This document shows, piece after piece, positions 13,291 to 27,667 of a stretch of 64,000 bases of DNA. The stretch lies in the sequence record KC295538, one strand, 5' to 3'. Made by a program: the position numbers and the translations under genes. Under the pieces are notes generated by a model, which saw only the letters and a program-made list of their open reading frames with translations, was not told the DNA's origin and made no database searches. The stretch comes from Escherichia phage PBECO4. Position 1 is the first letter of the stretch; each line of letters starts with the position of its first letter.

Positions 13291-14061
13291 TTAAATTTTT
13301 TCAAGGAACAAGTTTTCGCACTGTTCTTCCCAATCGTATGGGTTGTTGTTATATACTGCCGAAATCAACAGTGGCATACGCAGTGAAGGTGAACGAAGAG
13401 AATCTTCGTGCTTCAACATCCAGTTCAGAATTGCTTTACTACCATTACGGTTAATACCCTTAGATTCTAAAATGTTAGTCTTATTCATCACGTTCTCAAT
13501 GTGAATCATGATATCGCTTTTGGTCTGAATCTGTAAGTCAACGTATACAGAACGAGACATAAGAGCAGCATAGTGAGCAGACATTTTCGTTTTAGCTTTA
13601 GAATCTAATGCTAAATCTTTGTTAGTAATGAATACAATACGACCGTTGAAATCAAAGCTGTTAGGGATACCGTTGGTGCTCAGGTACTTAGAGCTAGTCA
13701 TATAAGACACGGTACGCTTACCACTATCTAGTACTGCTTTGAGCAGGTTCATACCGTCTTCTGAATCAAAGATGCTGTCCATATCATCCAGTACTAATAC
13801 GTTGGTGCTATGACGATTCTTGTACAGAACTTCGTACAGAGCCAGAGTAGTCATTTTACCACTGATGGTAGCTACGTTCCATTCTGCTGCGTCATGAGCT
13901 TTCTGGAGGCGTTTAGACAGGGTGTAAGTCTTACCAACACCAGGAGCACCACTGACAACCATACTTTTTACAGTACTGCTATCGTCGAGCAAACACTCAA
14001 GAGCAACCATCATGGAGTTGAAGTTTTTCTGAATTTGAATGCTACGTGCTTCTCTGGTCAT
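13291..14061 (-). CDS. P-loop NTPase (Walker A GAPGVGKT, Walker B VLVLDDMD), function unknown
   Basis: Motifs read directly in the 256-aa translation; GAGGA SD upstream. Confidence 0.75.
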   Translation of the reverse strand: MTREARSIQIQKNFNSMMVALECLLDDSSTVKSMVVSGAPGVGKTYTLSKRLQKAHDAAEWNVATISGKMTTLALYEVLYKNRHSTNVLVLDDMDSIFDSEDGMNLLKAVLDSGKRTVSYMTSSKYLSTNGIPNSFDFNGRIVFITNKDLALDSKAKTKMSAHYAALMSRSVYVDLQIQTKSDIMIHIENVMNKTNILESKGINRNGSKAILNWMLKHEDSLRSPSLRMPLLISAVYNNNPYDWEEQCENLFLEKI

Positions 14062-14089
14062 TTCGTTATCCTCATCAGTTGATGAAATA

Positions 14090-14122
14090 ATTATAGCAAA
14101 AAGGGCTGACCGAAGTCAACCC
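14090..14122 (-). promoter_or_regulatory. terminator-promoter cassette: hairpin GGGTTGAC-UUCG-GUCAGCCC embedded in TTGACT-18-TATAAT promoter
   Basis: Hairpin 14103-14122; -35 at 14119-14114; -10 at 14095-14090. Confidence 0.7.
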
Positions 14123-14236
14123 TTTTTATAAACATATTTAATACACACAATTACCCATATCAATATTTTTACCATTATAGGTAATAATATATTTTATCTT
14201 ATTAGGTTTAATAACAAAAACTTTTAATTTTTGTAT

Positions 14237-14464
14237 TCAATTTATCATTTGAAAAATAGTATACGAACCACTTCCATCTTTAAATACTTCTTGACTTTCA
14301 AACATAAACTTCTTTCCATCTATTTTTGCTGTTTGTGTTGTTACATCCAAATACAAATTGTAGATAGTGTCAGTTTTTGTGGATTTACATGTTGTTGATG
14401 CTTCAGTTTTTGCATTCACTGTTGTTGATAAACACATTAACAAAACTAACATTAACTTTTTCAT
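14237..14464 (-). CDS. small secreted protein (N-terminal signal peptide)
   Basis: MKKLMLVLLMCLSTTVNAKTEAS... Confidence 0.65.
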   Translation of the reverse strand: MKKLMLVLLMCLSTTVNAKTEASTTCKSTKTDTIYNLYLDVTTQTAKIDGKKFMFESQEVFKDGSGSYTIFQMIN

Positions 14465-14484
14465 TTTAATTAACCTCTTTTGTT

Positions 14485-15624
14485 TTACAAAATTACTTCA
14501 CCAAAAATACCATTGATATCACGTTCAATGATGTATTCACCTTCATGTTCAGCTAAGAACTTTTTAATGGCTTCGTTAACTTTAGGACGATGAATGTTGT
14601 TGAATGTTTCAGTGCAACCATCTCCCTTTTCATAATAACCTTTATTATATAGTTTACCACATAACGCAATTGTATGTATTATTATTTCCAATTCTCTAGC
14701 AAGTTTCCCACCCACATTCTTATGAAATAAAATGGAAATTTCATTACTCCAAAAATTATCTACTTTATATATTTTTTTATAAGATAAGTTTTGTGGACTT
14801 AATCTTGCTTTAATAGTTTTGTTTGTAATACCAGCTTTATCCGAATTTTTTGCATAATCATTGTGAATATAAAATCTTCCAGGCTTGGAAGTTTTAAATC
14901 CTTTTACTGCACACGTGGGACAACCAGAACCAGACAGATGTGAATTTGGTGTTTGTTGAAATTCACCATGTTCTTTGCATATTATAATAGAGGTTACTTG
15001 GTTGTTAATGTAGTCATATAAAGAATAATCATACTTATTTCCGTGTATAAGATGTGATTTTTTTATAAATTCACCTAAAGTTTGTTTTAAAGTTTGTTTC
15101 GTGCATTCTTGACAACCAATTTTACCAGTAGCTAAGTCAGTAATTGTGGGTTTTTTTATATCACCACAATCATTACATACTACTTCAATTTTAGTTCTAC
15201 TAGGAAGTGTAGAGTTAAACGAAGTTATTCCACTATAAGTAAATTTATCATAACCATATTTTTTGTTGATGACACTAATATGATTAATGGTGTAATATGG
15301 AATATTAATAATATTGTAAAAAATCTTCCCATTAAATCCCTGCCTAATAAAATTCGTGCAGGTGGCTCCAATAACTAACATACCATCGTTATTCACTACA
15401 AGTTTGGTTTTTGATTTAGATATATAATCTTGTGATCTATTGATATAGAATCCAAGAACTCTTGGATCATTTATTTCACCCATAATACTAATAGGATCTT
15501 GAGCAATGTTGGATTTTTTTACAAAATTTATATCTTCGGCTTTCATCCACTCAAAAAGCATTCCATGCTCTTCATAAAAATAAACTTTTTCACCATCTTC
15601 ATTAAAATAGTACTGTTCAAACAT
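14485..15624 (-). CDS. Cys/His-rich protein, possibly a zinc-binding nuclease (379 aa)
   Basis: CNDCG..GCQEC and ICKEHGEF...HLSGSGCPTC clusters; AAAGGAG SD. Confidence 0.5.
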   Translation of the reverse strand: MFEQYYFNEDGEKVYFYEEHGMLFEWMKAEDINFVKKSNIAQDPISIMGEINDPRVLGFYINRSQDYISKSKTKLVVNNDGMLVIGATCTNFIRQGFNGKIFYNIINIPYYTINHISVINKKYGYDKFTYSGITSFNSTLPSRTKIEVVCNDCGDIKKPTITDLATGKIGCQECTKQTLKQTLGEFIKKSHLIHGNKYDYSLYDYINNQVTSIIICKEHGEFQQTPNSHLSGSGCPTCAVKGFKTSKPGRFYIHNDYAKNSDKAGITNKTIKARLSPQNLSYKKIYKVDNFWSNEISILFHKNVGGKLARELEIIIHTIALCGKLYNKGYYEKGDGCTETFNNIHRPKVNEAIKKFLAEHEGEYIIERDINGIFGEVIL

Positions 15625-15853
15625 TACTTAAAACTCCTTTCCAGTACTGAACCCGTCCAGCACCATTAATCTTAGCTTGAATCTTATCTTTTTCGACAAG
15701 ACCTTCTTTGAAATCTATGGACGTATTATCGCACTTAATTACATCTAAGTCAAGTACTTCTTGTGTACTTAATGAAGTATTATCTGCAATTTGTTGTAAA
15801 GTAATTACATCAGTACCGAAGAATTCAGCTAATCGTATAAAAGATAGTTTCAT
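15617..15853 (-). CDS. hypothetical protein (78 aa)
   Basis: Track ORF with AGAGG SD; downstream of cassette promoter. Confidence 0.6.
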   Translation of the reverse strand: MKLSFIRLAEFFGTDVITLQQIADNTSLSTQEVLDLDVIKCDNTSIDFKEGLVEKDKIQAKINGAGRVQYWKGVLSNV

Positions 15854-15879
15854 TTGTTACCTCTTGTGTTGATGAAATA

Positions 15880-15912
15880 ATTATAGCAAAAAGGGCTGAC
15901 CGAAGTCAACCC
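15880..15912 (-). promoter_or_regulatory. terminator-promoter cassette (copy 2)
   Basis: gatgaaataattatagcaaaaagggctgaccgaagtcaaccc; -10 at 15885-15880, -35 at 15909-15904. Confidence 0.7.
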
Positions 15913-15918
15913 TTTATG

Positions 15919-16278
15919 TTATTCTAATTCACTCATAGTACTAATAGTTAATCCCATTTCTTCTGCAATGTTGCATAACAGACCAACTGCATTGCGAAGA
16001 ATATCAGTGTTATCCACCGAGAATGATGAGTTTTCATTTACCGTTGAAGACTCAATGTAGTACTCAAAATAACGAGAAGTTGAACGCACAACTTTAACAC
16101 CTTCATACTTCTGTAGTTCAGAGTTGATACGCTCGATGAGCGAATCTTCCAGTACTCGATAGTCACCATTCATTCCACGTTTCCATCCATCAGCAGGACG
16201 GAAATAAAAAGTTTTTGTACGTTGAATTGTTGAGATTGTTAGTGGGTTGTATTCCGCGATTTCACTTAAAGATGCCAT
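15919..16278 (-). CDS. hypothetical protein (119 aa)
   Basis: Track ORF, SD TGAGGA. Confidence 0.65.
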   Translation of the reverse strand: MASLSEIAEYNPLTISTIQRTKTFYFRPADGWKRGMNGDYRVLEDSLIERINSELQKYEGVKVVRSTSRYFEYYIESSTVNENSSFSVDNTDILRNAVGLLCNIAEEMGLTISTMSELE

Positions 16279-16340
16279 ATTGTATTCCTCATTTTCTTTG
16301 TTACATGATACTGAAAGATAAAACTGGTGTCAATGTTTTT

Positions 16341-16775
16341 TTAGATCATAGAACGATAATACTCAGGTAACTCAACATCAGTAAATTTATACCACTTAGG
16401 CTTCATCTGGAGCTTCTCAATCAAACGCTCACGAGAGGTTTTAATTTCTGATTCAGATGGTACGTAATCATTACAAAACTCAGCAGGGAAGCTGCTAATG
16501 TCGTTTACTTCAGTGTTTTGAATCTTCATACCACGACGCAAACATTCGTTGACAATATCGATATGACGCTTCTGTAAGTACAGCAACTTGTCGTAAAAGA
16601 ATGTCACATGACCTGAACCCAACAGATAAGTACTGTTAATTTTGAAATCACGTACACGCTTACGTGCTTGAACGTGTTTTTGTACAGCACCAAATACACG
16701 TGGGAGTTCACGATATTCAGCCATCAGGTGTTGGTCAGCAAGTTCTTTAACGTGTACTAAGTTAATGCGTGTCAT
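16341..16775 (-). CDS. denV: pyrimidine-dimer DNA glycosylase, T4 endonuclease V homologue
   Basis: [49 protein letters not shown] matches T4 DenV as I recall it, over the full 144 aa. Confidence 0.85.
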
Positions 16776-16803
16776 GTATTCATCCTCTCGTTTCGATGAA
16801 ATG

Positions 16804-16836
16804 ATTATAGCAAAAAGGGCTGACCGAAGTCAACCC
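16804..16836 (-). promoter_or_regulatory. terminator-promoter cassette (copy 3), upstream of denV
   Basis: -10 at 16809-16804, hairpin 16817-16836, -35 at 16833-16828. Confidence 0.7.
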
Positions 16837-16842
16837 TTTTCT

Positions 16843-17130
16843 TTATTCAATGATCCCCAACTTCACAATCTCATACCCGTCCAGATAGCCATATGAACAC
16901 TCAGGAGTTTCATAGGATGAACCATCATGGATACCCTGGCATTGACTTTTAGAATTCTCAAGAAGTCGTTGCAGTACTGATACGTCCTCAAGAACGTAAC
17001 ACAAGGATACATCTGGGTCTTCCACGATACAGTACTCCAACATATCAAACGTATCAATCGAAATTTCAACCTTGGCAAATCGTTTCTTTTCTTTATTATA
17101 CAGTGCGTACATATTAATCTCCATAATCAA
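16843..17130 (-). CDS. hypothetical protein (95 aa)
   Basis: Track ORF. Confidence 0.55.
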   Translation of the reverse strand: MIMEINMYALYNKEKKRFAKVEISIDTFDMLEYCIVEDPDVSLCYVLEDVSVLQRLLENSKSQCQGIHDGSSYETPECSYGYLDGYEIVKLGIIE

Positions 17131-17485
17131 GTTTAACTAACTTACCACCCAGATACCCAAAGTTTTCTGGCTTCACATCTGAATAGAAGAAGTCAGTACT
17201 TAACTCTGAATTTAATGCTAAAGCACACAACTCCACCCAAAATAAACCCCTATGTTGCACTGGCTTACAACGTTTCTGTACTGTTATTAAACCAGTGCAT
17301 GATGACCACAAAGTAGGGCAGATACCACTATCACTACGATTGGAGTACTGCATCCATGAACGTTCATTGAGGTTAGCTATCATTCCAGTTAGGAATAACT
17401 TCCAGCTTTTGAAGGTTGGAATCTTAATAGCGTATTCCCCAATGAGGATAACAGTTCGGGTTGCACCTTTCAAGTCTATGTTCAT
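17114..17485 (-). CDS. small protein with protein-kinase-like motifs (YAIK, DVKPEN, DYG)
   Basis: GEYAIKIP ... SDVKPENFGYLGGKLVKLDYGD has the catalytic-loop-to-DFG spacing. Confidence 0.5.
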   Translation of the reverse strand: MNIDLKGATRTVILIGEYAIKIPTFKSWKLFLTGMIANLNERSWMQYSNRSDSGICPTLWSSCTGLITVQKRCKPVQHRGLFWVELCALALNSELSTDFFYSDVKPENFGYLGGKLVKLDYGD

Positions 17486-17674
17486 ATTAATAAGAATCAG
17501 ATTCCCAGTACTCGATTGCTTCTTTCAGCAATTCTTTAGCACGTTGTTTTGCAATGCGAGCGGGAAACTGATATGTGTACATTAACTGACGCTTCACTTC
17601 ATTCAGTGAAAGCTGTTCATGGTACAGTGCATCCATCAGTCGATTACGAGTACGTAGTTTCATATAAGTTATCC

Positions 17675-18229
17675 TTATTTCAAAGAATCATAGTAAGCAG
17701 TGTCAAAGATTGGAGTCATAATAACATAGTCAATACGGTCAATGTAAGTTGAACTCCACATTTCTGGTTTGTCATATAACTGACGCTCGCGTTCATTCAT
17801 ACGAGTCAGTACTTCTTCCAATTTACTACGTGAATCCATCAATGTATTACTCGAACCATAAGTGAAGTACTCAGTCCAATGATATTCATATTCAGTACTG
17901 ATAGATTGAATAGTACCATCTTTGAAATGAGCTAAGGCATAACCTTTCTCTACAAAGTTATCAGGTGGAAGAACACCATCTGGATTAGTTTTCAATGCTT
18001 GTGCTAACTTTTCTTTAATTTCAGTTAACGTGCATACTGAACGAATGTTCTTCAGGTTTGATACTTGAAAATCACTGTACTTTCCAAAGAAAAATACACG
18101 CCAATCTTTAGGTTCATTATCAGATACGGTAGCATCAGGGTGATGGGCGAGTAAACGAAGAAGGCCAGCTTTGTGACCGTTAATGTAGATTTCATGGATG
18201 TGGTTAGCAGTTTTCTTAAAAGTAATCAT
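17675..18229 (-). CDS. hypothetical protein (184 aa)
   Basis: Track ORF, GAGGA SD. Confidence 0.7.
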   Translation of the reverse strand: MITFKKTANHIHEIYINGHKAGLLRLLAHHPDATVSDNEPKDWRVFFFGKYSDFQVSNLKNIRSVCTLTEIKEKLAQALKTNPDGVLPPDNFVEKGYALAHFKDGTIQSISTEYEYHWTEYFTYGSSNTLMDSRSKLEEVLTRMNERERQLYDKPEMWSSTYIDRIDYVIMTPIFDTAYYDSLK

Positions 18230-18276
18230 GGTAGTTCCTCGATTGTAGGGATGAGAAGTTCATCCCCTTGATAAGC

Positions 18277-18304
18277 ATTATACAGTACTGAATGTGTTTG
18301 TCAA
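18277..18304 (-). promoter_or_regulatory. sigma-70-like promoter TTGACA-16-TATAAT with CAGTACTG abutting -10
   Basis: Minus strand TTGACAaacacattCAGTACTGTATAAT. Confidence 0.65.
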
Positions 18305-18305
18305 C

Positions 18306-18701
18306 TCAAAATAAATTCATTTCATGTGCGTATTGTGGTTCAAGATAAGATAAGTTTTTGAAACTGTCTTTCAATTCTGCATCATCTACGTACACAGTAC
18401 CAGGTACATTCCCCATAGTGAAGCCAACCCAAACAGTCATGTTTCCAGTTCCTAAGCGGGGCATTGATAGCGTCCCGTCAGGTGAAACATCAAACGCTAC
18501 ACTAAAGTCATCCGTTACAACTTCCGAACCATTTTCCAGAATAATACAACCACGTTCTTTAAGCTTCTGAATGTGGATAGCAGCCTCTACAGCACGTTTA
18601 AAGTTATAATAAGACTCTTTATCCTCGAACATTGATTGTTTAACCAGACGCTTGTTTAGCTCGGTTACTTTGTGCATTTGACGCATTACTTCAACTCCCA
18701 C
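18306..18701 (-). CDS. hypothetical protein (131 aa)
   Basis: Track ORF. Confidence 0.65.
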   Translation of the reverse strand: MGVEVMRQMHKVTELNKRLVKQSMFEDKESYYNFKRAVEAAIHIQKLKERGCIILENGSEVVTDDFSVAFDVSPDGTLSMPRLGTGNMTVWVGFTMGNVPGTVYVDDAELKDSFKNLSYLEPQYAHEMNLF

Positions 18702-18940
18702 AGTTGTAGAATTTCATAAGAGCCTGGTGGTGCTGGATTGATAATCTCAGGGTATTCAGTACTGTTAGGATTACCACCAGCATTGAACTCAGCAAGTAAT
18801 AATTCGAGTTCATTCCTATCATGTACAACAAACACGCAATATCCAGTTCCTTCTTCAAGAACTGTAGTTGACCCCGCACAATCCCATACGGTATCAATAC
18901 ATAATAATTCTTTAGTGTTTTTATTACGCAACGCAAACAT
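18686..18940 (-). CDS. hypothetical protein (84 aa)
   Basis: Preferred over overlapping 18691..18993 frame on composition. Confidence 0.5.
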   Translation of the reverse strand: MFALRNKNTKELLCIDTVWDCAGSTTVLEEGTGYCVFVVHDRNELELLLAEFNAGGNPNSTEYPEIINPAPPGSYEILQLWELK

Positions 18941-18949
18941 ATATGTCTC

Positions 18950-19318
18950 CTATCGATTCGGCATATTCTTTCGTAGTCGCAAGAGAAATTCAACCACTGA
19001 CCATGTTGTAATGAAGGCTATATAAGTTGCAAGGAATCCAGTAAGAATAAATGCAACCAGCGTACTACCATTTGGGGAATCAGTTTTAATGCCGATGACA
19101 CCATCGGCTACAGTGAAACATGTAGCCATTAATGTGTAACCTACGTACAACACAAAGAAAAACTCATTCTCCATTGAAGGATAGAAACGGTTAAACACTT
19201 TATAAAATTTAAAGTACAGTAGGATTATACCAACAAAGGCATAGAATGTAAACAGTGTTGTTATAATATATGAGATTAGGTTCAAATTATACATATCAAC
19301 GCTCCGGTAGATTATCAC
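18950..19318 (-). CDS. small integral membrane protein (family M)
   Basis: Hydrophobic 122-aa ORF ending ..RLRKNMPNR. Confidence 0.65.
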   Translation of the reverse strand: MIIYRSVDMYNLNLISYIITTLFTFYAFVGIILLYFKFYKVFNRFYPSMENEFFFVLYVGYTLMATCFTVADGVIGIKTDSPNGSTLVAFILTGFLATYIAFITTWSVVEFLLRLRKNMPNR

Positions 19319-19643
19319 GTAATGTTTTAATTCGATGATACATTTTCATACCAATATTACCAAAGATACCATATCCAAGTACTAAAATGTATGCAATAAG
19401 CATAGTAATAATTACTATAGTGCCAAAACTATAATGTACACTACTGATACCCATTGTAGTTTCAACGATTATTTGAGAAACTGAAAGAATCAAAAGTACA
19501 ACTACAATTGGATGATTTGGGTACATTCGGTTGAACAACGTTTTGTACTTAAAGAAGCACAGTACTCCACCGAATAAGAAGTAAACAATGTAAATGCAAG
19601 CAACAGCATAGGCAAACATGTTAGTGTAATAAATCATTACCAA
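19296..19643 (-). CDS. small integral membrane protein (family M)
   Basis: Hydrophobic 115-aa ORF ending ..LRDNLPER. Confidence 0.65.
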   Translation of the reverse strand: MVMIYYTNMFAYAVACIYIVYFLFGGVLCFFKYKTLFNRMYPNHPIVVVLLILSVSQIIVETTMGISSVHYSFGTIVIITMLIAYILVLGYGIFGNIGMKMYHRIKTLRDNLPER

Positions 19644-19646
19644 TCC

Positions 19647-19985
19647 TTACTTTTCAGGGATATTAGAACGCCATATATCAATGCGATGAACTAGTCCAAA
19701 GAACAACCATACTGGAACGGCAGCTATCATAACAACAAATGAAAACCCAGTCAAGACCGATACCAGATTTAATTCATCAGTACTATACCCACATATCAGT
19801 ACTTCTAATATTCCCCACGTACATGCACAAAACATCAAGAATGAAATTGGGGCATCATAGTAGATACGTTCATATAAAGTAGTGTATCGGAAGAATGCAA
19901 TAATGTAGCAAAACATATAATACACCCAAACCAAAGATACTACATAAAATGATACTTTGTTTATTAATTCAAAATATTGTTCCAT
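19647..19985 (-). CDS. small integral membrane protein (family M)
   Basis: Hydrophobic 112-aa ORF ending ..WRSNIPEK. Confidence 0.65.
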   Translation of the reverse strand: MEQYFELINKVSFYVVSLVWVYYMFCYIIAFFRYTTLYERIYYDAPISFLMFCACTWGILEVLICGYSTDELNLVSVLTGFSFVVMIAAVPVWLFFGLVHRIDIWRSNIPEK

Positions 19986-19987
19986 TT

Positions 19988-20269
19988 TTACCCCAATATA
20001 TATTCAGAGAGTAATGTATTAGCTTCATCTTTGTTCTTAAGGTAATACATGTAATATAGATTCGGTTCACCATCTTTAGCACTCAAATCGAAGTACTTTA
20101 AACTATGTACTTTCATAGTAAAAACAAATAATGACTTAAAACCAATCTCACCGTACTTAATAAACAGTTCATCCAAATGAATGTAACTTTTTGATTTGGA
20201 TAATTCTTTAACGTCTGCATCAATTTCAGATAAAAGATGCTTACCTATTAAGTTTTCAAATGAACGCAT
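19988..20269 (-). CDS. hypothetical protein (93 aa)
   Basis: Track ORF. Confidence 0.6.
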   Translation of the reverse strand: MRSFENLIGKHLLSEIDADVKELSKSKSYIHLDELFIKYGEIGFKSLFVFTMKVHSLKYFDLSAKDGEPNLYYMYYLKNKDEANTLLSEYILG

Positions 20270-20331
20270 GATTTTTATCCTTTACCGCAATTTTTATGGT
20301 TTATTAAGAATACACCAGAATATCAGTTCTG

Positions 20332-20973
20332 TCAATAAAAAACTGGATCTTCTTCAGTAATTGGTATTTCTCTACGTACATCACACGAAAGAGGATCAGT
20401 AATGAATACATTCCCATCTTTATCCATCATCACATTACTTGAATGAATGTCTGGTACAAAACGCCCGTGAAACTCTTTCATGATGTTAGCAGCGACCGTC
20501 GCAATAGCAATCTCTTCAGAATTTCCACGCATATCATTCACTGAAGTAGCGTACTGACCAGCATGTGCATAAGAATATAAATCTCCAATTTTAGTACTAA
20601 CAAAGTCATCATAATTATTTTTTTGTTTAATTATAGGATAGTACTTGTCCATCTCATACCATCCAAAGTTTCCTTGTTCGTTTGCACTGTAGATCACTGG
20701 AAGAAACTTGGTTCCTGCGTTTTCAATGCAGTACTTTGCATAAGCACGAAAACCATCCCAGCGTGAAGTGGTTACTTTAAATGCACGCCCAGGATAGTTT
20801 TTATGTTCAACTACTACAGAGTACATCCCCATTCCAAGCAAAGTAAGTCCAGCAGCTTTAACTTGTGGAAAGATTACGCGTTCAGCATAAGGAATATCAA
20901 ACTCCATCGCACAACGAGTTTTTGATGGACGCAAAATGTCAATTAAAGTTTTGAATATTTCTTGCTTAGTCAT
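20332..20973 (-). CDS. protein-kinase-like fold protein (start moved to ATG 20973 with GAGGA SD)
   Basis: C-terminal DIHSSNVMMDKDGNVFITDP resembles the HxDxxxxN...D catalytic motif of atypical kinases; track start 21006 overlaps the promoter -10. Confidence 0.55.
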   Translation of the reverse strand: MTKQEIFKTLIDILRPSKTRCAMEFDIPYAERVIFPQVKAAGLTLLGMGMYSVVVEHKNYPGRAFKVTTSRWDGFRAYAKYCIENAGTKFLPVIYSANEQGNFGWYEMDKYYPIIKQKNNYDDFVSTKIGDLYSYAHAGQYATSVNDMRGNSEEIAIATVAANIMKEFHGRFVPDIHSSNVMMDKDGNVFITDPLSCDVRREIPITEEDPVFY

Positions 20974-21001
20974 TACTTTATCCTCTGTAGTTAATATCAA
21001 C

Positions 21002-21034
21002 ATCATAACAAAAAAGGCTGACCGAAGTCAACCC
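21002..21034 (-). promoter_or_regulatory. terminator-promoter cassette (copy 4; -10 TATGAT)
   Basis: Hairpin ggctgaccgaagtcaacc 21016-21033; -35 TTGACT inside the stem. Confidence 0.6.
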
Positions 21035-21042
21035 TTTTATTA

Positions 21043-21279
21043 TCATTTACAGTTTTCTATAACTATTGCACGTTTTAGTATTTTACTTTCATAAACATAC
21101 TTAAGATGACCTTCTTCACGAATACGATTGAACACATATCCTAGTTTATCTTTTAGTACTGAAGCGGTATCAATGTCAAGATTAACTTCAACCCCTCCTG
21201 TTAATTTAACTTTATATGTAAAGCTAAAAGCATCACCAGATTCAACCAATGGGACTACTTGTTCATACGTATTCAACAT
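21043..21279 (-). CDS. hypothetical protein; may extend upstream to include a signal peptide
   Basis: In-frame upstream region to 21483 encodes KSIFLSIILVLFSFNVYA but has no ATG. Confidence 0.5.
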   Translation of the reverse strand: MLNTYEQVVPLVESGDAFSFTYKVKLTGGVEVNLDIDTASVLKDKLGYVFNRIREEGHLKYVYESKILKRAIVIENCK

Positions 21280-21580
21280 AACTCGTTCATCATTAACTAA
21301 ATTATATATTACTATATCACAAGTTTTTACCCCAATTTCCTCTAATGTAGGAGCATTATCTACTATAACATCTTTTACTGTATTTGCAACCTGTTTAGCA
21401 TCTGCTGCATATACATTAAAACTAAAAAGTACTAAAATAATACTTAAAAAAATACTTTTTCTATTATATATCCTTATTTTATTTTACATGTCATATCGGG
21501 TTGTGCTGGTTTATTATTTTTAAACGGATTAGGTTTTTTATTCTTTCTTTTTATCTTTTAAAGGTTTTTTGTCTTCTTTT

Positions 21581-21799
21581 TTATTCTTTATCTTTGTCTT
21601 TTTTATTTTTATCAGGTTCAGAGGGAGTATTACATTGTGCTGGGGGTTGATTAGTTGGAGTACAGCTATTGTCTGATGGGAGTATTACTTCTTTACAATT
21701 GTAAAATAGTAAACTTTTATTTGTGGTTAAATTATGAAAACGATAGTTACGTTCATTATTATAATAAATTGTTTTAGTACTTTCAATGTCATTGCACAT
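21581..21799 (-). CDS. hypothetical Cys-containing small protein (72 aa)
   Basis: Track ORF. Confidence 0.5.
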   Translation of the reverse strand: MCNDIESTKTIYYNNERNYRFHNLTTNKSLLFYNCKEVILPSDNSCTPTNQPPAQCNTPSEPDKNKKDKDKE

Positions 21800-21809
21800 T
21801 GCTACTGAA

Positions 21810-22061
21810 TCACCGGAACTCTTTTTCTATTCCCATTACATCAGTCTTACGCTCAGATAGTATACCTGAAGTATATGAATCTTTGTTGTCAAACGCATTA
21901 AATCCAATAGTTCTGTCGGTGTCGTGTATTATTCCTTTTGTGTATGAGGTAGTATAGAACTCCCCATTTCTGAAATCCTGCCTTGCTACTGAGCAATGAT
22001 AATCTGCACCATAAGCAGTACTGGAAAATAATACAATTCCAAATATAATATATTTTTTCAT
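21810..22061 (-). CDS. small secreted protein (signal peptide)
   Basis: MKKYIIFGIVLFSSTAYGADY... Confidence 0.65.
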   Translation of the reverse strand: MKKYIIFGIVLFSSTAYGADYHCSVARQDFRNGEFYTTSYTKGIIHDTDRTIGFNAFDNKDSYTSGILSERKTDVMGIEKEFR

Positions 22062-22090
22062 TGTAATCCCTCTTCTTAATTCCTCTTTTG

Positions 22091-22122
22091 TATTTACAAA
22101 AAAAGGCTGACCGAAGTCAACC
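22091..22122 (-). promoter_or_regulatory. terminator-promoter cassette (copy 5; weak -10)
   Basis: Hairpin 22105-22122 with TTGACT in stem. Confidence 0.5.
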
Positions 22123-22132
22123 TTTTAAATGT

Positions 22133-23644
22133 TTATTTTTTATCCTTTCCAACACCACTGTCGTACTCTTTGAATGAGTTATCAAGTGTAGTTAGTGCAT
22201 ACTCATATGCTTCTGGTGATTCAATGTCAACATCATCTGCACCATTTACTAAATCAGCCCACGCCTTTTGAAGTTTACGAGCATTGTTACCAACATTATC
22301 TTTAATCCAACTAATGTTTTTGTTGATACTTTTACGATCAGCACCTGCTTTTTTGCCAATCTCGGATATCCACATCATTAGCTTTTGAAGTTCATGAATT
22401 GATTTATCGGTCATTTCAAGATGTTCTTCTTCCATACCTTCGGAATCAGATGAACCAACGTCAATTCCATGTTTAGCTAATAGTTTACCAAGTTCAAAGA
22501 ATGCAGCTTCAGCAGGGAAGTCATAACCTTTCTCTTTGTAGTTATTCCATGCACTATCAAACTCGTCAACAAAACGGTTAGCATAATCTGGATTTTTAAC
22601 TAATGCTTTATATACTGCAATTGCATGTTCAAAACCTTCTTTATCTGACCCAAACTCTTCCATCTCAGGACGATGAATGTATCCATCCATATCAACGGTA
22701 TCAGGTAGTTCTTCTTGCTCAGGCTCAACATCTTTCTGTTCAACTGCACCCTCTTCATCTGCACGCTTTAGATAACCATCTGGTGTTACCTTCTCACCAT
22801 GTTCTGCTTCATACTTTTTCATAGTGTTGAATGCAGCATCCATAGCTGTTACGAAGCGACTTTTCTCACCTTGTACATAAGATTTAAGTGCACTGTTAAC
22901 TGCATCTGATACGAGCTTAACCTTATCGTCTTTACCTTCTAAACGGTTTTCAAGTTTAGCCAGTACATTCTTGACTTGCTGGGCATTAGCACGGTCCGCT
23001 TTACCAATATTATCAAAAGTTTTAAGAATACCATCAAGACTTGCTTCACCCTGTTCAGGTTCTTTGGAATCTTCTTTGTGTGTACCTTCAAGTGCACGCA
23101 TGATAGTACTGAATACTTCAGTTGGTTCAGTGCTCTTATTACCTTTCATTACATCAAGTACAGCTTGTGCTTTACCTTTGAGTTCTTCTTTAGGAACTGC
23201 CTGTAGTGCTTTGACAATACCCTGAATCAACTGTGGTTTGTTAGCAAAGATCTTACCTAAGTTATCTGATAACTCTTTAACAGGGTTAGCAGCTTTAGGT
23301 ACTTCTGCTTTTGGTTCTTCTTTAGGAACTGCTTGTTCTTTCTCAGCACGTTCCATATCAGCTAGGCGTTGTTTTTGTGTAGCATTAAGAAGTCCCAATG
23401 AATTAACATAACGTAGCTTTTCTAGCTCAGTCATGTTCTCAGTACTCTTAACTTCACCTGCTTCTGCGTTTGCTTTACCAGCTAGACCAGTTCCTTGGTT
23501 ACGTGACCCACGTGAACCTTGACCTGCTTGATAACTATTTGGACGGCGGTTGCGTTCACTCCATTTATCAGAGTGACCAGCCATGTTACCACCATTTTTA
23601 TCAGTAAAATTACTTGGCATTTGATTTCTCTCCATAGATTTCAT
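22133..23644 (-). CDS. large charged (K/E-rich) protein, 503 aa, unknown function
   Basis: Track ORF; low-complexity charged composition; shares a short motif with neighbouring 127-aa ORF. Confidence 0.7.
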   Translation of the reverse strand: MKSMERNQMPSNFTDKNGGNMAGHSDKWSERNRRPNSYQAGQGSRGSRNQGTGLAGKANAEAGEVKSTENMTELEKLRYVNSLGLLNATQKQRLADMERAEKEQAVPKEEPKAEVPKAANPVKELSDNLGKIFANKPQLIQGIVKALQAVPKEELKGKAQAVLDVMKGNKSTEPTEVFSTIMRALEGTHKEDSKEPEQGEASLDGILKTFDNIGKADRANAQQVKNVLAKLENRLEGKDDKVKLVSDAVNSALKSYVQGEKSRFVTAMDAAFNTMKKYEAEHGEKVTPDGYLKRADEEGAVEQKDVEPEQEELPDTVDMDGYIHRPEMEEFGSDKEGFEHAIAVYKALVKNPDYANRFVDEFDSAWNNYKEKGYDFPAEAAFFELGKLLAKHGIDVGSSDSEGMEEEHLEMTDKSIHELQKLMMWISEIGKKAGADRKSINKNISWIKDNVGNNARKLQKAWADLVNGADDVDIESPEAYEYALTTLDNSFKEYDSGVGKDKK

Positions 23645-23668
23645 TTTTTTCTCTATGTCTATATTTAT

Positions 23669-23699
23669 AGTATAAAGAAAAGGCTGACCGAAGTCAACC
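23669..23699 (-). promoter_or_regulatory. terminator-promoter cassette (copy 6; TTGACT-17-TATACT)
   Basis: Hairpin 23682-23699; -10 at 23674-23669. Confidence 0.65.
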
Positions 23700-23707
23700 T
23701 TATTTTG

Positions 23708-23821
23708 TTACTTAGATTGTTCTTGTGCAGGTGGATTTACTTTTTGATCCACTACATAGAATACACCACCAACCAGTACTGCGGCGATGAGTGCAGCAAC
23801 TACAAATTTTAAACCTTGCAT
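23708..23821 (-). CDS. possible small membrane protein (37 aa)
   Basis: ATG with GAGG SD; MQGLKFVVAALIAAVLVGGVFYVV...; below track size cut-off. Confidence 0.4.
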   Translation of the reverse strand: MQGLKFVVAALIAAVLVGGVFYVVDQKVNPPAQEQSK

Positions 23822-23850
23822 ATATGATACCTCAGTTATATTGAGAAGTT

Positions 23851-23883
23851 ATGATACAACAAAGGGCTGACCTTAGTCAACCC
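23851..23883 (-). promoter_or_regulatory. terminator-promoter cassette (copy 7; variant loop CTTA)
   Basis: gggctgaccttagtcaaccc 23864-23883. Confidence 0.55.
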
Positions 23884-23889
23884 TTTTTA

Positions 23890-24273
23890 TTACTTCTTGA
23901 ACTTATGTTTTTCACTTTCGATTGCATTCACGATTTCATCATGAATTTTACGAAGATTGTGAGTTTTCTTGAGAGAATCATGCAATGCACGGAATGCAGA
24001 GTGTACAGTTGCTTTAAAGTGCTCTTTAGGAGTTACTTTAAGTTTCTCGATAATATCACGTACATAGATTGGGTGATCCTCAAACACACGATTAAGCTCA
24101 TGACCTAGTGATTCTAGGCTAAATGCTTTTTCACGGGATGGACGATCATGTGCAAGACTTTGGTCTGGTTTTAGAAGACCTAGTGAATCTAGATACTTGT
24201 GCTTATGTGCATTGTCTAGACCAGAAATATCAACATCATGTGATGGATCTTTCTTATTCCATTTATCAACCAT
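23890..24273 (-). CDS. hypothetical basic protein (127 aa)
   Basis: Track ORF; contains YLDSLGLLKPDQ. Confidence 0.65.
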   Translation of the reverse strand: MVDKWNKKDPSHDVDISGLDNAHKHKYLDSLGLLKPDQSLAHDRPSREKAFSLESLGHELNRVFEDHPIYVRDIIEKLKVTPKEHFKATVHSAFRALHDSLKKTHNLRKIHDEIVNAIESEKHKFKK

Positions 24274-24388
24274 TTTTATAACTCCTATAAGAGATAAATT
24301 TTACTATAATATTTATAGTTCCGTTGTCATTTATATCGAATGACATAAAACATTATATCATAATAAGAATGGTTGTCCCAAAGTTAAA

Positions 24389-24862
24389 TTAGTACTGACC
24401 AAGTTCAGATGTAAAAATAAATGCATCCATGTCTTCCAACGTAAGTTTTAAGTCTGGTACATACTTAAGAATAACGCACTCTGGCTTCTTAATAGCAGCT
24501 TGATAAGCAGCAATGGCAAGGGATTCCAATTGCTGTGCTGTATAATTTTTACGTTCTGCATTAAAAACTTTGTTTTTGATATCACCACCTGGGAGTTTTT
24601 CAAACTCACGCATAACTGCGGTAAGAACATCGTCAGCAGTGTTACTATATACCCATTGGGGTAATTGCATTACATTATAAATCACACCACTATCATCCAT
24701 CAAAGAGATCCATTTGTACCCATCACTAGCACTGAACAAACGCCCTTTTAGTACTGTGTTATTAGTTAAATTTACAAATGCAAAAATATCTTGTTCGTTA
24801 AGTTCAATACTATTAACATTTACCCAACTCATTACGATTCCCCATTCATAAATCACGAACAA
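24389..24862 (-). CDS. hypothetical protein (157 aa)
   Basis: Track ORF. Confidence 0.65.
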   Translation of the reverse strand: MFVIYEWGIVMSWVNVNSIELNEQDIFAFVNLTNNTVLKGRLFSASDGYKWISLMDDSGVIYNVMQLPQWVYSNTADDVLTAVMREFEKLPGGDIKNKVFNAERKNYTAQQLESLAIAAYQAAIKKPECVILKYVPDLKLTLEDMDAFIFTSELGQY

Positions 24863-25442
24863 TATTCATTAAACACAATTTAGGTTTTATAGCATTCAAC
24901 ACCCATATGCATTCTTTGTAAGTAGCTATTATATCATCTAAATGCTCAGTTACAATGCTTTCTTGAAAATATTCTTCATCATTGAGCTTTGCTAATTTAG
25001 TAACATCACACGTAGGCACTATAGGTCTGGATTGTACACCCATTCCATTATTGATATTAGTGAAATGTACAAAATGGTACTTCACTACACCTTTATCTAG
25101 ATTTATTATACATGACAAATTTTCCAACTCAGTTAGTTTTTTATTACAAGTAACATTAATGAAACCAGCATTATAGGCTCTATAATCATCTACTGATATC
25201 TCAAAATCATTACGTTCAAATATAAGTGAAATGAGTTGGTCCAGTGGTTTGACATTCATATATTTTAATGAATTTACGTATGATACTTCAATCTTAGATG
25301 AAATTATCTTTTTACTAAGTGCAGTTAAATCTTTGTTAGATTTAACTGTTAAAACAATAGGTTTAAACCTAGAACTTTTGTTCTTTTTTGATACTTTAAA
25401 ACGACCTTTACGATTCATAATTTCCTCAATTAATAATTTCAC
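24846..25442 (-). CDS. hypothetical protein (198 aa)
   Basis: Track ORF. Confidence 0.65.
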   Translation of the reverse strand: MKLLIEEIMNRKGRFKVSKKNKSSRFKPIVLTVKSNKDLTALSKKIISSKIEVSYVNSLKYMNVKPLDQLISLIFERNDFEISVDDYRAYNAGFINVTCNKKLTELENLSCIINLDKGVVKYHFVHFTNINNGMGVQSRPIVPTCDVTKLAKLNDEEYFQESIVTEHLDDIIATYKECIWVLNAIKPKLCLMNIVRDL

Positions 25443-25647
25443 ATTTAACGTGTGGTTTATATAGCATAATTAACCCATTTTTAAGTACAATGATTGTTGC
25501 TCTGTTAGTAATCGAAACGTTTTTAATTATACTTTTTTTATATGTTTCAACATATTTCTCTTCATAATTTATACATTTAACATATTCTTTTTGTTTAGCA
25601 CTTACAACAGTACTGAATAATATCAGTACAAGTACTATATATTTCAT
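25426..25647 (-). CDS. small secreted protein (signal peptide)
   Basis: MKYIVLVLILFSTVVSAKQ... Confidence 0.6.
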   Translation of the reverse strand: MKYIVLVLILFSTVVSAKQKEYVKCINYEEKYVETYKKSIIKNVSITNRATIIVLKNGLIMLYKPHVKCEIIN

Positions 25648-25699
25648 TACTATACCTTATAAACAAAAAGGAATTCATTTAAGAATTCCTATTTTACAA

Positions 25700-25993
25700 T
25701 CATTTATCTAACATACCATTGTGCAAACGTTCATATACTTCAGTTCGACGCAAATTAACAATATCTTCTGCGTATTTTAATGTAAATGCCCATGCTTTTG
25801 GATGTACGTTAAGCTTCATACGAATTCGATTTTTCATCAACTCTCCACTTAAACGAATAAATTCGTGTACACCACGACTACCGTATTCAGTAATTAAATC
25901 ATTAATGTACATATCACGAAGAGTTTCATCTGCACATTCTTTAACCATTTCTACGTCAGCGACGATGCTTTCATTAACTGAAGTACTGATCAT
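25700..25993 (-). CDS. hypothetical protein (97 aa)
   Basis: Track ORF. Confidence 0.6.
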   Translation of the reverse strand: MISTSVNESIVADVEMVKECADETLRDMYINDLITEYGSRGVHEFIRLSGELMKNRIRMKLNVHPKAWAFTLKYAEDIVNLRRTEVYERLHNGMLDK

Positions 25994-26005
25994 TTTTAAT
26001 TTACC

Positions 26006-26272
26006 TTATTTAAATTCGACTGTAATTTTATCACCTTCAACTACGAACTTACAGTTGTAGCGACGTGCCATATCCATGTACATATGCTCAGAGTACCAAG
26101 GAACATCAATAATCGGATGCTCTGCATATTGTAAAACTTCACGGTCGCCCACTGTAGTAATGATGAAAGGAATGTTCATCTCTCGTAAAAACAGTTCAGC
26201 ACCAGGAGAACGATTAATAAATTCAGTATCATTACGTAAAGTAAATCCATTATATTGTAATTTAAGCTTCAT
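26006..26272 (-). CDS. hypothetical protein (88 aa)
   Basis: Track ORF. Confidence 0.6.
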   Translation of the reverse strand: MKLKLQYNGFTLRNDTEFINRSPGAELFLREMNIPFIITTVGDREVLQYAEHPIIDVPWYSEHMYMDMARRYNCKFVVEGDKITVEFK

Positions 26273-26286
26273 ATGTTATCCTCTAT

Positions 26287-26631
26287 TCAATACCATTCTT
26301 TAAAACCATTAAGTTCGGCTACGTGAGTGATTATAACACATATAACATTCAGGTCAAGTATAATTTGATCATAATTTAATTTTATACGATCATCATTATA
26401 TGCTCTAAAAACTACATCGTAATCAAAGAAATTTGCGTTTTCATCATTCATTGAAACGATTCGGTATCTACGTCTTCCATCTGTATTGAATATAGTTAAA
26501 CACTGTTGAAACTTTCTCATTAACTGTTTAGATAGGATATTATAATATTCAATATCTTTTTGTGAATTACGTGGGTCATCAGGAAGATAGAATGAAACAA
26601 ATTTCTTTAATTCTATTTGAGTTTTATCCAT
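26287..26631 (-). CDS. hypothetical protein (114 aa)
   Basis: Track ORF. Confidence 0.6.
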   Translation of the reverse strand: MDKTQIELKKFVSFYLPDDPRNSQKDIEYYNILSKQLMRKFQQCLTIFNTDGRRRYRIVSMNDENANFFDYDVVFRAYNDDRIKLNYDQIILDLNVICVIITHVAELNGFKEWY

Positions 26632-27064
26632 ATATTACCTCATTTGTTTCTCTTTTACTTTGTCGGAACTCATCCTTTGCTTCCTTAACTGACATGATAC
26701 GAACTAATTTAGCACTACCGCAATAGTACTGAACCTGATTACGACCAATGTCTACATGGTGGTCTGGAACTTCATATACAGATATAGCAAACCCAGCACG
26801 ATGCAATTTACCTAAGTCCATAGTGAAGAATCTGAACAAATCTTTCAAACTTTGACAGCCAAATACCCATCCACTTTTGATTGAATAAATCCCATCCTCA
26901 GTTGGTTCAGGTTGGAATTGAGAAGGTGTAGTCATGAGCAAACGGTCAAATCCATTTTTAGTACTGTATCTGGTTGAATACCGTGCAAACGGACCTACAG
27001 TTCGTGCAGGATCTAAGTTAGGTTCAATGTAACTAAATTTAAGTTCAAAACGATATACATACAT
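26624..27064 (-). CDS. hypothetical protein (146 aa)
   Basis: Track ORF, AGAGGA SD, downstream of cassette promoter. Confidence 0.65.
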   Translation of the reverse strand: MYVYRFELKFSYIEPNLDPARTVGPFARYSTRYSTKNGFDRLLMTTPSQFQPEPTEDGIYSIKSGWVFGCQSLKDLFRFFTMDLGKLHRAGFAISVYEVPDHHVDIGRNQVQYYCGSAKLVRIMSVKEAKDEFRQSKRETNEVIYG

Positions 27065-27092
27065 AATTAAAATCCTCTAATTTATTAAGAGA

Positions 27093-27124
27093 ATTATAAC
27101 AAAAAAGGCTGACCGAAGTCAACC
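27093..27124 (-). promoter_or_regulatory. terminator-promoter cassette (copy 8; TTGACT-18-TATAAT)
   Basis: Hairpin 27107-27124; -10 at 27098-27093. Confidence 0.7.
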
Positions 27125-27364
27125 TTTGTTTTGAAGTTCTTGAACTAATTGTCGTACTTCGTTAATATTTTTACACTGCTTTACAGTGAAGTAATCATAC
27201 TTACGACCATAGGTTCTTGGGTCATCACCTTCCATATACTGCTGCACATCAAAGATTTGTAAGTAGGGATGCTGCATAACACGAATATTATCACTTTGAT
27301 AAATCAACATAATATCAATCCTTATATTTACACAAGCCACCAAAACTAGTTTCTTTAGCACCAC
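27119..27364 (-). CDS. hypothetical protein (81 aa)
   Basis: Track ORF; stop lies inside cassette hairpin. Confidence 0.55.
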   Translation of the reverse strand: MVLKKLVLVACVNIRIDIMLIYQSDNIRVMQHPYLQIFDVQQYMEGDDPRTYGRKYDYFTVKQCKNINEVRQLVQELQNKG

Positions 27365-27665
27365 GACGCATCATAACTAATTTAGCATATTGTGTGCCAT
27401 TACTATCTTCATATACATCTACTTCAATAAACGCTAAGAAGTTAGGGTCTGTGTCGTTAGAAAACTCAGTGAAGCTAATGTCGCCTACTGTATGCTCTTT
27501 AACAAACGTATATGATTGTCCATCAATATATACAATATCTCGATCGTCACTATCACCTTGATAGATATGTTTAATATTACCATCTGTACAAACTAAACCT
27601 TCCAATGGTTCAGCATATGACAATCCACACATTAACATACATACAAAAAATAAAATAATTTTCAT
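27315..27665 (-). CDS. small secreted protein (signal peptide)
   Basis: MKIILFFVCMLMCGLSYAEP... Confidence 0.6.
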   Translation of the reverse strand: MKIILFFVCMLMCGLSYAEPLEGLVCTDGNIKHIYQGDSDDRDIVYIDGQSYTFVKEHTVGDISFTEFSNDTDPNFLAFIEVDVYEDSNGTQYAKLVMMRRGAKETSFGGLCKYKD

Positions 27666-27667
27666 GA

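Follow-up and report, generated by a model that had tools for sequence, protein, structure and literature searches.

A repeated stem-loop and promoter module, probably of the promoter-early stem-loop type, in the early region of Escherichia phage PBECO4

Why does one short hairpin recur, almost letter for letter, between genes over 13 kb of a jumbo phage genome? The question is raised by a 64,000-nucleotide stretch of Escherichia phage PBECO4 (sequence record KC295538; this whole stretch is called the window below), in which an earlier note, made from the letters alone, had picked out eight copies of a hairpin thought to terminate transcription of one gene and to restart it for the next. Every sequence-level prediction of that terminate-and-reinitiate module was found to hold, and comparison with other phages agrees with it. 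The eight repeats are very probably composite regulatory cassettes of the PeSL (promoter-early stem-loop) type in the early region of a 121Q-like jumbo phage; how they terminate, initiate and recombine is what we infer from their sequence. PeSLs were described as intergenic repeats of phages RB49 and phi1 in which strong sigma-70-like early promoters are combined with stem-loops (Arbiol et al. 2010, PMC2839356). The earlier note had missed that this class was already described, that one of the copies lacks a -10 hexamer, and that the elements are also points of recombination.

The core of the repeat, CTGACCGAAGTCAAC on the plus strand, occurs exactly at 14106, 15896, 16820, 21018, 22107, 23684 and 27109, and an eighth copy at 23867 differs from it by two changes in the loop (CTGACCTTAGTCAAC). 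Recurrence at eight sites, as first proposed, is far from chance: 0.05 copies were expected from dinucleotide shuffles, and none of 100 shuffles reached eight. All copies lie on the minus strand, which is also the gene strand, and span 14.1-27.1 kb (13 kb). They are thus co-directional with the genes and not "outward-facing" as had been suggested. No further or degenerate copies were found in the 64-kb window with either a profile hidden Markov model built from the eight copies (nhmmer) or a covariance model, the sole additional model match being an unrelated hairpin-plus-promoter at 35.6 kb. At that site (35601-35535, minus strand) a different terminator-like hairpin, AAAAAAGGTTGGCATAAGCCAACCTTTTTTT, stands right after a stop codon, and about 25 nt further on TGTGATATAAT constitutes an extended -10 promoter.

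Read on the minus strand, the parts of all copies follow one another in a single order: the stop codon of the upstream open reading frame (ORF), an A-run, the hairpin (G)GGTTGAC-TTCG-GTCAGCC(C), a T-run, G(C/T) followed by a TATAAT-like hexamer, a leader of about 20 nt that contains GAGG as Shine-Dalgarno sequence, and the ATG of the next gene. The hairpin begins 8-11 nt after the stop codon in six copies and 116 nt after it in copy 14106. Occurrence inside coding sequence had been named in the earlier note as something that would speak against the module; seven of the eight copies are wholly intergenic, from stop codon to the next Shine-Dalgarno sequence and ATG, and the exception is copy 27109, in which the stop codon TGA lies inside TTGAC and the upstream ORF overlaps the element by 5 nt. 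The distance from the start of TTGAC to the ATG is constant at 53-59 nt. TTGACT covers the 5' arm plus the first base of the loop; its placement in the 3' stem by the earlier note is valid only for a reading of the plus strand, the transcript carrying it in the 5' arm. Between it and the -10 hexamer there are 18 nt in six copies and 17 nt in one. The hexamer is TATAAT four times, TATGAT, TATACT and TATCAT once each, and TAAATA in copy 22107. The -10 at 17-18 nt that had been predicted (TATAAT or TATACT) is consequently present in seven copies, in two of them as TATGAT or TATCAT, and absent from the eighth; the combination of TTGACT, a 17-18 nt spacer and TAnnnT occurs in these seven copies and the upstream A-run in all eight. 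Five copies also have TG one base ahead of the hexamer (TGn), which is the extended -10 motif of E. coli promoters.

The RNA form of the hairpin is GGGUUGAC-UUCG-GUCAGCCC, followed by a U-run. The stem is built of the pairs G-C, G-C, G-C, U-G, U-A, G-C, A-U and C-G over the UUCG loop and is extended by A-U pairs, so that it has the features of an intrinsic terminator: a core stem of 8 bp with 3-4 G-C pairs and a U-G, a loop of 4 nt, and 3-7 U straight after the stem. Segments of 46 nt of the sense (minus-strand) RNA were calculated to fold at -14.1 to -20.4 kcal/mol, with z from -4.7 to -6.9. RNA of the opposite sense folds less well (-9.3 and -13.5 kcal/mol), because U-G turns into an A-C mismatch and the loop into CGAA. 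The predicted terminator hairpin of the minus-strand transcript is thus stable in RNA of that sense only, with its U-tract directly after it. In front of the -35 box, the A-run plus GGG resembles the proximal UP-element consensus, which is AAAAAARNR, and a UP-like sequence has been reported ahead of the RpoD-like promoters of phage CBB in its genome paper. All stretches of the 45-nt module thus seem to have a double role, as terminator and as promoter. The A-run would extend the stem and act as UP-like sequence, the 5' arm would be the -35 box, the 3' arm with the U-tract would be terminator and promoter spacer at once, and the G past the U-tract would belong to an extended -10.

Conservation of the RNA structure was assessed with a covariance model made from 14 copies and used to search the window, eight relatives and 37 IMG/VR loci. 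With E ≤ 0.1 as the limit and both strands counted, it gave 250 matches, many of the weaker ones being opposite-strand or overlapping matches at the same sites; the best 150 of the 250 were aligned and yielded 109 distinct sequences. In these, standard pairs fill 97.8% of the pair cells, compared with 24-60% after a shift of the partner column by 1 to 3 positions. The TTGAC of the 5' arm is essentially invariant, as expected of a -35 box. The 3' arm varies among GTCAG, GTCAA, GTCGG, GTTGG and GTTAG, all of which still pair by way of wobbles, in the sense RNA only; GTCAT is the sole variant that breaks a pair, and GATTGAC...GTCAGTC is a two-sided (double) compensatory change. Loops other than UUCG are largely of the GNRA type (GAAA, GAGA, GTAA, GCAA, GCGA). 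Among stable RNA tetraloops, UUCG and GNRA form the two classic families. This pattern of substitutions and loops argues for an RNA hairpin on the sense transcripts rather than for a protein operator on the DNA.

The second question is whether the promoter half belongs to the hairpin. The exact 18-mer GGTTGACTTCGGTCAGCC was found 56 times in 39 IMG/VR stretches, and 54 of these occurrences share one context of stop codon, A-run, hairpin, T-run and TAT-rich hexamer. The contigs include 121Q and the presumed RaK2, GAP32, CBB, fHe-Yen9-04 and Brochothrix phage A9, as well as a presumed Aeromonas T4-like phage, a Vibrio phage and uncultivated virus genomes (UViGs) of 110-366 kb. A search of related genomes, which the earlier note had proposed, has thereby recovered the element from Asteriusvirus relatives, RaK2-like phages and other phages. 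In bacteria, searched with one genome per species, the hairpin with its flanking runs was met 17 times, in Acinetobacter, Exiguobacterium, Vibrio, Bacteroidetes and a Clostridia metagenome-assembled genome; these copies sit after genes, like ordinary terminators. A spread of the element deduced from the 17 bacterial matches against 0.14 under a random-sequence null was dropped, since the proper null is the huge population of UUCG terminators, and it was weakened further because several matches are orthologous loci inside one genus. Because TAnnnT follows TTGACT by 16-19 nt in 46 of 52 distinct phage contexts compared with 1 of 16 bacterial ones (Fisher p = 1.7e-9), the fusion to a -10 is, as judged from these contexts, the phage-specific part, the hairpin alone behaving as a terminator. 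The bacterial sites share with the PBECO4 copies the identical stem-loop GGUUGAC-UUCG-GUCAGCC, the A-run and U-run flanks and the position after genes; they differ in being single-copy and without a link to cassette exchange, as well as in the rarity of the -10.

The two halves of the module have also been recognized by others, in separate places: GenBank records of relatives mark them either as terminators or as promoters. The depositors of G17 labeled the corresponding hairpins as ARNOLD terminators, those of UE-S1 as terminators, and in the fHe-Yen9-03 record the corresponding site is annotated with -35/-10 signals. The repeat sites, with TG ahead of the -10, are among the strongest promoter matches in the window. 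Of the sigma-70 promoter matches in the whole window that agree with the consensus at 11 or more of 12 positions, 32 lie on the minus strand and one on the plus strand, while the total of weaker promoter-like matches there is not above that of shuffles. The stretch of about 10-64 kb has the appearance of a single long early region transcribed by the host polymerase.

It is improbable that the repeats are plain intrinsic terminators, with a TTGAC and a TATAAT-like hexamer that are incidental in AT-rich DNA and with downstream genes served by read-through or other promoters. Such an explanation would suit the identical hairpins that lack a promoter in Acinetobacter, Exiguobacterium, Vibrio and Bacteroidetes, copy 22107 with no -10, and the ordinary total of promoter-like sites in the window, but it conflicts with the frequency of the -10 at 16-19 nt in phage as opposed to bacterial instances, with the TG in five window copies, with the invariance of TTGAC in the 5' arm next to a variable 3' arm, with the fixed distance to the Shine-Dalgarno sequence and ATG, and with the -35/-10 called by the annotators of fHe-Yen9-03.

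Other promoter elements of the window were noted as well. A second early-promoter family has the form TTGACA, about 8 nt, and (C)AGTACTG-TATAAT-G, with a palindromic AGTACT in the spacer and TG as extended -10. Exact sites are at 18277-18289, 28867-28879, 33181-33193 and 50445-50457 on the minus strand, and sites with one mismatch at 32843-32855 and 39736-39748 on the minus and 25609-25621 on the plus strand; these seven matches with up to one mismatch, six of them on the minus strand, compare with 0.39 expected. Two further hairpins lie over the -10 of strong minus-strand promoters, at 58539-58521 (GGAGTATGTATAATACTCC, TATAAT in the loop) and at 37812-37796 (GGAGTACAATGTGCTCC), and correspond to other PeSL subclasses of RB49/phi1.

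The genomic setting is that of the 121Q/PBECO4 group of RaK2-like coliphages of about 350 kb (genus Asteriusvirus), to judge from the closest megablast matches, 121Q and CRJP21, which have 97.9% identity over 76% of an 11-kb query in several pieces. Around the eight copies there are about 45 mostly small hypothetical genes, and the region is coding on the minus strand. Among the few identifiable products are a T7 gp0.7-like protein kinase and a virion structural protein (both by the relatives' annotation), denV, an AAA-type ATPase and endonucleases, and the region looks like one for early takeover of the host.

Copy by copy, with all coordinates on the minus strand, the putative promoters and their genes are as follows. 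Copy 1 (14090..14127) has the hairpin GGGTTGAC-TTCG-GTCAGCCC at 14122-14103, folding at -19.5 kcal/mol, with TTGACT at 14119-14114, the T-run, TGC and TATAAT at 14095-14090, and would drive an AAA-ATPase-like gene (ATG 14061). Copy 2 (15880..15917; GGG..CCC; -35 at 15909-15904, TATAAT at 15885-15880) follows a stop codon TAA by 8 nt and would serve a 78-aa ORF (ATG 15853). Copy 3 (16804..16841; -35 at 16833-16828, TATAAT at 16809-16804) stands before denV, the gene of pyrimidine-dimer glycosylase (ATG 16775). Copy 4 (21002..21039; -35 at 21031-21026, TATGAT at 21007-21002) is a GGG..CC variant and stands before the gene called a protein kinase in the annotation of relatives (ATG 20973). An origin of this copy by recombination of both subtypes was considered and set aside, as it is indistinguishable from one C-to-T transition that keeps a G-U pair. 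Copy 5 (22107; 22091..22128) has a GG..CC hairpin, a run of 7 T and TAAATA at the -10 position, and follows the 503-aa gene to which the records of relatives assign a virion structural protein; this copy probably has no role other than that of a terminator. The putative promoter of that 503-aa ORF (ATG 23644) is copy 6 (23669..23705; GG..CC; -35 at 23697-23692, a 17-nt spacer, TATACT at 23674-23669). Copy 7 (23867; 23851..23888; GGG..CCC; -35 at 23880-23875, TATCAT at 23856-23851), with TAAG replacing TTCG in the loop, would serve a 37-aa mini-ORF (ATG 23821), and copy 8 (27093..27130; GG..CC; -35 at 27122-27117, TATAAT at 27098-27093) a 146-aa ORF (ATG 27064), the preceding ORF ending at the TGA within TTGAC.

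Several of these positions are shared across genera. The module stands before the orthologous denV (MTRINLV...) in RaK2 and CBB, before the orthologous kinase (MTK.EIFKTLI) in a UViG of 359,777 bp, and before the orthologous ATPase (MTRE...IQI) in two UViGs. Since the leaders and the synonymous sites have diverged at these junctions, the element itself is, by this comparison, retained or kept uniform across deep divergence.

Some observations on what follows the hairpin-promoters in these genomes may be added. The motif (C)ATCGAAAC(GA), as at 16803-16780, sits about 7 nt past the -10, where the transcript is predicted to start. Of 92 hairpin-promoters 28 have it, compared with a background of 6%; it is common to Asteriusvirus, RaK2-like, CR3-like and Vibrio phages (loci L011, L021, L022, L030, L037, L040, L041, L045, L046, L050), and may represent an initial transcribed sequence or a leader that has been conserved. 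In 121Q (L014; 1965, 5659 and 8957, outside the window) and in the UViGs L027, L037, L038 and L047 there are hairpin-promoters with no Shine-Dalgarno sequence or ATG after them. These loci instead carry a conserved ..(A/G)CCCAYAGGGTGC.. segment, in some of them as an arm of a long inverted repeat, and most of them also have a second promoter-like sequence; the segment is a candidate for a small structured RNA. Searches of these odd downstream sequences of the 121Q and UViG loci for tRNA and against Rfam gave no match. Finally, about 120 nt shown around the hairpin in L054 (Bdellovibrio bacteriovorus, NZ_CP102930.1) are identical to L010 (Stenotrophomonas phage CM1, an unverified record), which suggests one phage-like DNA filed under two very different organisms.

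The third question is what the repeats do to the gene content around them. Positions 11001-30000 of the window were aligned with 121Q, G17, WPEC3, SD-15_S21, JP4, phAPEC6, UE-S1 and fEgEco12. Some 33 distinct homology breakpoints were found against these eight relatives, of which 8-9 fall within 35 nt of a hairpin center where about one was expected (binomial 4e-6), with the caveat that other promoter-bearing gaps (16296-16372, 13230) have breakpoints too. Seven of the eight copies are affected: copy 1 at 14125-14130 in seven relatives (all but 121Q), copy 2 at 15902/15924 and 15849 in JP4 and UE-S1, copy 3 at 16842-16851 in four relatives, copy 4 at 21050 in UE-S1, copy 5 at 22126 in SD-15_S21, and copies 6 and 7 at 23706-23713 and 23841-23854 in WPEC3, fEgEco12 and UE-S1.

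UE-S1 carries two chimeric elements. In one, the upstream flank is that of copy 2 and the downstream flank that of copy 1, these copies being 1.79 kb apart in PBECO4, and the 1.79 kb between them is gone. The other lone element has the upstream flank of copy 7 and the downstream flank of copy 6, which are 183 bp apart; because its GGG comes from copy 7 and its TTCG...GCC-TTTT from copy 6, the crossover is placed inside the 5' arm. The same slot between copies 6 and 7, which in PBECO4 holds a mini-cassette with the 37-aa ORF (23706..23850, minus strand), is filled by 730 bp of other genes in WPEC3 and fEgEco12.

The most variable cassette lies directly upstream of copy 1 (14131..15623, minus strand; 1.49 kb) and contains a 379-aa endonuclease gene (phrog_681 / HNH phrog_559) and a 75-aa ORF; for the cassette proteins, PHROGs gave endonuclease and HNH families and Pfam was little informative. 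The cassette is missing from SD-15_S21, UE-S1 and fEgEco12, and 121Q, G17, JP4, phAPEC6 and WPEC3 have other endonuclease genes instead. Its 3' junction is at the hairpin edge, 14125-14130, in all relatives but 121Q (14763). The slot ahead of copy 1 thus holds a differing endonuclease gene in almost every relative, or none, the families being phrog_681, phrog_559 HNH and phrog_9084 homing endonuclease. At copies 1 and 3 the gene insertions fall exactly between the stop codon and the hairpin; upstream of copy 3 there is a 414-bp HNH gene in JP4, WPEC3 and fEgEco12, and in phAPEC6 a decayed remnant of 86 nt. At copy 2, JP4 has a degraded half-copy, CATCAAGGATTCACTTCC, on the far side of an inserted gene of 612 bp.

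Other rearrangements in or around this region are recorded here for completeness. Four paralogous genes, each of 315-348 bp, stand in tandem at 11891-13225 (minus strand); their copy number differs among relatives, and unequal recombination between paralogues fits the breakpoints at 13094-13097 and 13230-13238. Two genes between copies 4 and 5 (21043-21800, minus strand), homologous to 121Q gp204 and gp203, look disrupted: the gp204 homologue has lost its start codon, leaving an internal ORF of 78 aa, and the gp203 homologue has a frameshift in an A-rich stretch coding for Lys and Asp, which could be pseudogenization or a homopolymer sequencing error. In Salmonella phage SD-15_S21 (L004, 6215-6994) a coding sequence annotated as "endonuclease" consists of the N-terminus of denV fused to the C-terminal part of the adjacent 119-aa ORF by a deletion matching window positions 16296-16372, and several small deletions are found within the structural-protein gene of this phage too.

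Such mobility could be read differently, namely that the repeat is a selfish mobile element of 26-45 nt, similar to a miniature inverted-repeat transposable element (MITE), or a target and landing site of homing endonucleases, and that its regulatory look is secondary. The endonuclease genes of several families that abut the hairpin at copies 1 and 3 and vary among relatives, the half-copy beyond the inserted gene in JP4, and the near-identical module in Straboviridae, RaK2-like phages, Vequintavirinae and a Herelleviridae phage are all in line with this idea, to which we nevertheless give little chance. The eight copies have neither the terminal inverted repeats, nor the target-site duplications, nor the free orientation of a MITE: the hairpin is the only inverted repeat, no flanks are duplicated, and orientation is always that of the genes. 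Moreover, copies kept at orthologous junctions across genera indicate retention over recent spread, and the constraints of promoter and terminator almost fully specify the sequence, making convergence plausible. Least credible of all is a promoter with a palindromic operator, where the inverted repeat would bind a dimeric repressor of phage or host and the RNA hairpin would be irrelevant: the repeat does cover the -35, just where a repressor would block RNA polymerase, in a region of early genes that need later shut-off, but the substitutions preserve pairing in the sense-strand RNA (U-G, which is A-C on the other strand) and not half-site identity, the loops are of the stable RNA families, a T-run always follows, the hairpin alone is a terminator-like site in bacteria, and a repressor common to unrelated phages and hosts, Brochothrix phage A9 included, is unlikely.

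Where the module came from is a separate matter. A 33-nt stretch, GGGTTGACTTCGGTCAGCCCTTTTGTTATTATA, is identical in Brochothrix phage A9 and in two loci of the presumed Klebsiella phage RaK2 (a contig of 345,809 bp), and GGGTTGACTTCGGTCAGCCC with T-run and -10 is common to Asteriusvirus, other RaK2-like phages, Straboviridae of Vibrio and Aeromonas, Vequintavirinae-like phages and the Herelleviridae phage A9 of a Gram-positive host. It is conceivable, and we hold it only tentatively, that the module is a pan-phage mobile regulatory cassette that travels horizontally with the genes it flanks, rather than a product of repeated convergence, its 33-45 nt acting as a portable homology arm or landing pad, also for homing endonucleases. 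Joint constraints, however, leave the sequence almost no freedom: TTGAC is the -35, its closing C-G favors UUCG, a spacer of 17-18 nt sets the stem at about 8 bp plus 4-6 U, and purines are required at the UP-like positions; GTCAG in place of GTCAA would avoid a TTGAC on the opposite strand. With these constraints, and with a hairpin that clearly arose independently in bacteria, convergence and horizontal spread cannot be separated.

For the PeSL-type cassette, the proposed course of events is the following. Host RNA polymerase coming from the upstream gene would transcribe the stem-loop and the U-tract and undergo intrinsic termination. The same DNA would act as a strong sigma-70 promoter, with the A-run and GGG as UP-like sequence, the 5' arm supplying the -35 TTGACT, the 3' arm and T-run the 17-18 nt spacer, and the G past the T-run completing an extended -10 (TGnTATAAT). 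The new transcript would begin about 7 nt past the -10 and so would be without the hairpin, having only a short leader with the Shine-Dalgarno sequence of the next gene, and each small gene or group of genes would become an insulated early transcription unit. Since near-identical patches of about 45-60 nt lie at many intergenic sites, the copies may double as patches of homology: recombination between two would delete the intervening cassette and, in reverse, insert one, and free-standing homing-endonuclease genes would land at the hairpin edge.

Several points weigh against this interpretation. Copy 22107 has TAAATA only, whose last position is not T, and the 18-nt spacer of six copies is slightly above the optimum of 17 nt. 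The enrichment of breakpoints is confounded, as viable insertions and deletions must end between genes and the elements occupy the larger intergenic gaps; the breakpoints were, in addition, clustered by hand, and the relatives share ancestry and are not independent. Many of the insertions are homing-endonuclease genes, which move by a mechanism of their own. Termination could also be only partial in efficiency, and a literature search found neither transcript 5' or 3' ends nor a transcriptome for any Asteriusvirus.

How do the repeats compare with known systems? Hairpins of the C(UUCG)G type reportedly occur in intercistronic regions of phage T4, where work by Tuerk and colleagues in 1988 is said to have linked them to termination and to stability of mRNA 3' ends. 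The PBECO4 repeat has the same exceptionally stable UUCG tetraloop closed by C-G and lies likewise between phage genes; the T4 hairpins are individual ones, whereas here the hairpin is fused to a -35 box in a repeated module. Like the morons of lambdoid phages, each unit is autonomous, consisting of promoter, one or a few small genes and terminator between resident genes. In lambdoid morons the regulatory parts are separate, unconserved between sites and not thought to mediate insertion (PMC2839356), unlike the situation here, in which one common module provides both signals and the homology.

The closest likeness is to the PeSLs. In RB49/phi1 these were divided into five subclasses by the position of the stem-loop, one of which overlaps the -35; their stem-loop was about equal to the rrnB T1 terminator in lowering lacZ expression; their promoters were too strong to be cloned intact, the clones having gained mutations in the -35 or -10; and neighboring PeSLs recombined to give mini-circles, with crossovers in or next to the stem-loop (PMC2839356). 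The class was later widened to PST/T4 and nt-1/KVP40 (Comeau et al. 2014, PMC4122927). The PBECO4 elements share with it the intergenic sigma-70-like early promoter and terminator stem-loop placed between a stop codon and the Shine-Dalgarno sequence and ATG, the repetition within a hyperplastic region of small ORFs (eight copies in 13 kb), the indels and replacements between close relatives that end at elements, the chimeric copies, and, with the one phi1/RB49 subclass, the overlap of stem-loop and -35; the likeness here comes from sequence and comparison, while promoter, terminator and mini-circle activity were measured in RB49/phi1. They differ in that their host genome is a 350-kb RaK2-like jumbo phage and not a T4-type phage, a point that concerns the group in which PeSLs were defined, not their mode of action, and so does not disqualify them; in that the repeat core is about 45-60 nt compared with about 100 nt; and in that one fixed, far more uniform hairpin with the -35 in its 5' arm and a C(UUCG)G loop takes the place of the G(n)-loop-C(n) stems of RB49. 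The searchable literature yielded no account of PeSLs from Asteriusvirus or RaK2-like phages, and a search for the exact repeat sequence gave no relevant match. A jumbo-phage review has PeSLs only as a citation in its reference list, the RaK2 genome paper does not discuss promoters, and the CBB paper predicted RpoD-like promoters and terminators separately. The class has been known since 2010/2014; the novelty lies in the host lineage, in the very uniform version whose -35 is inside a UUCG stem, and in the evidence from breakpoints and chimeras in Asteriusvirus.

Current understanding is not overturned by these findings. For 121Q-like jumbo phages, phage-therapy candidates with more than 80% of their genes unknown, they offer a ready, predicted transcription map of the early region, and the genes between copies would, as inferred from the sequence, be independent early units. 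At 45 nt the module comes near the smallest size possible for a part that combines insulator and promoter, and its copies point to natural sites where cargo genes could safely be inserted. The modular shuffling known from PeSLs would now reach beyond T4-type phages, and it would explain why gene content differs in this region among isolates that are otherwise 95-99% identical.

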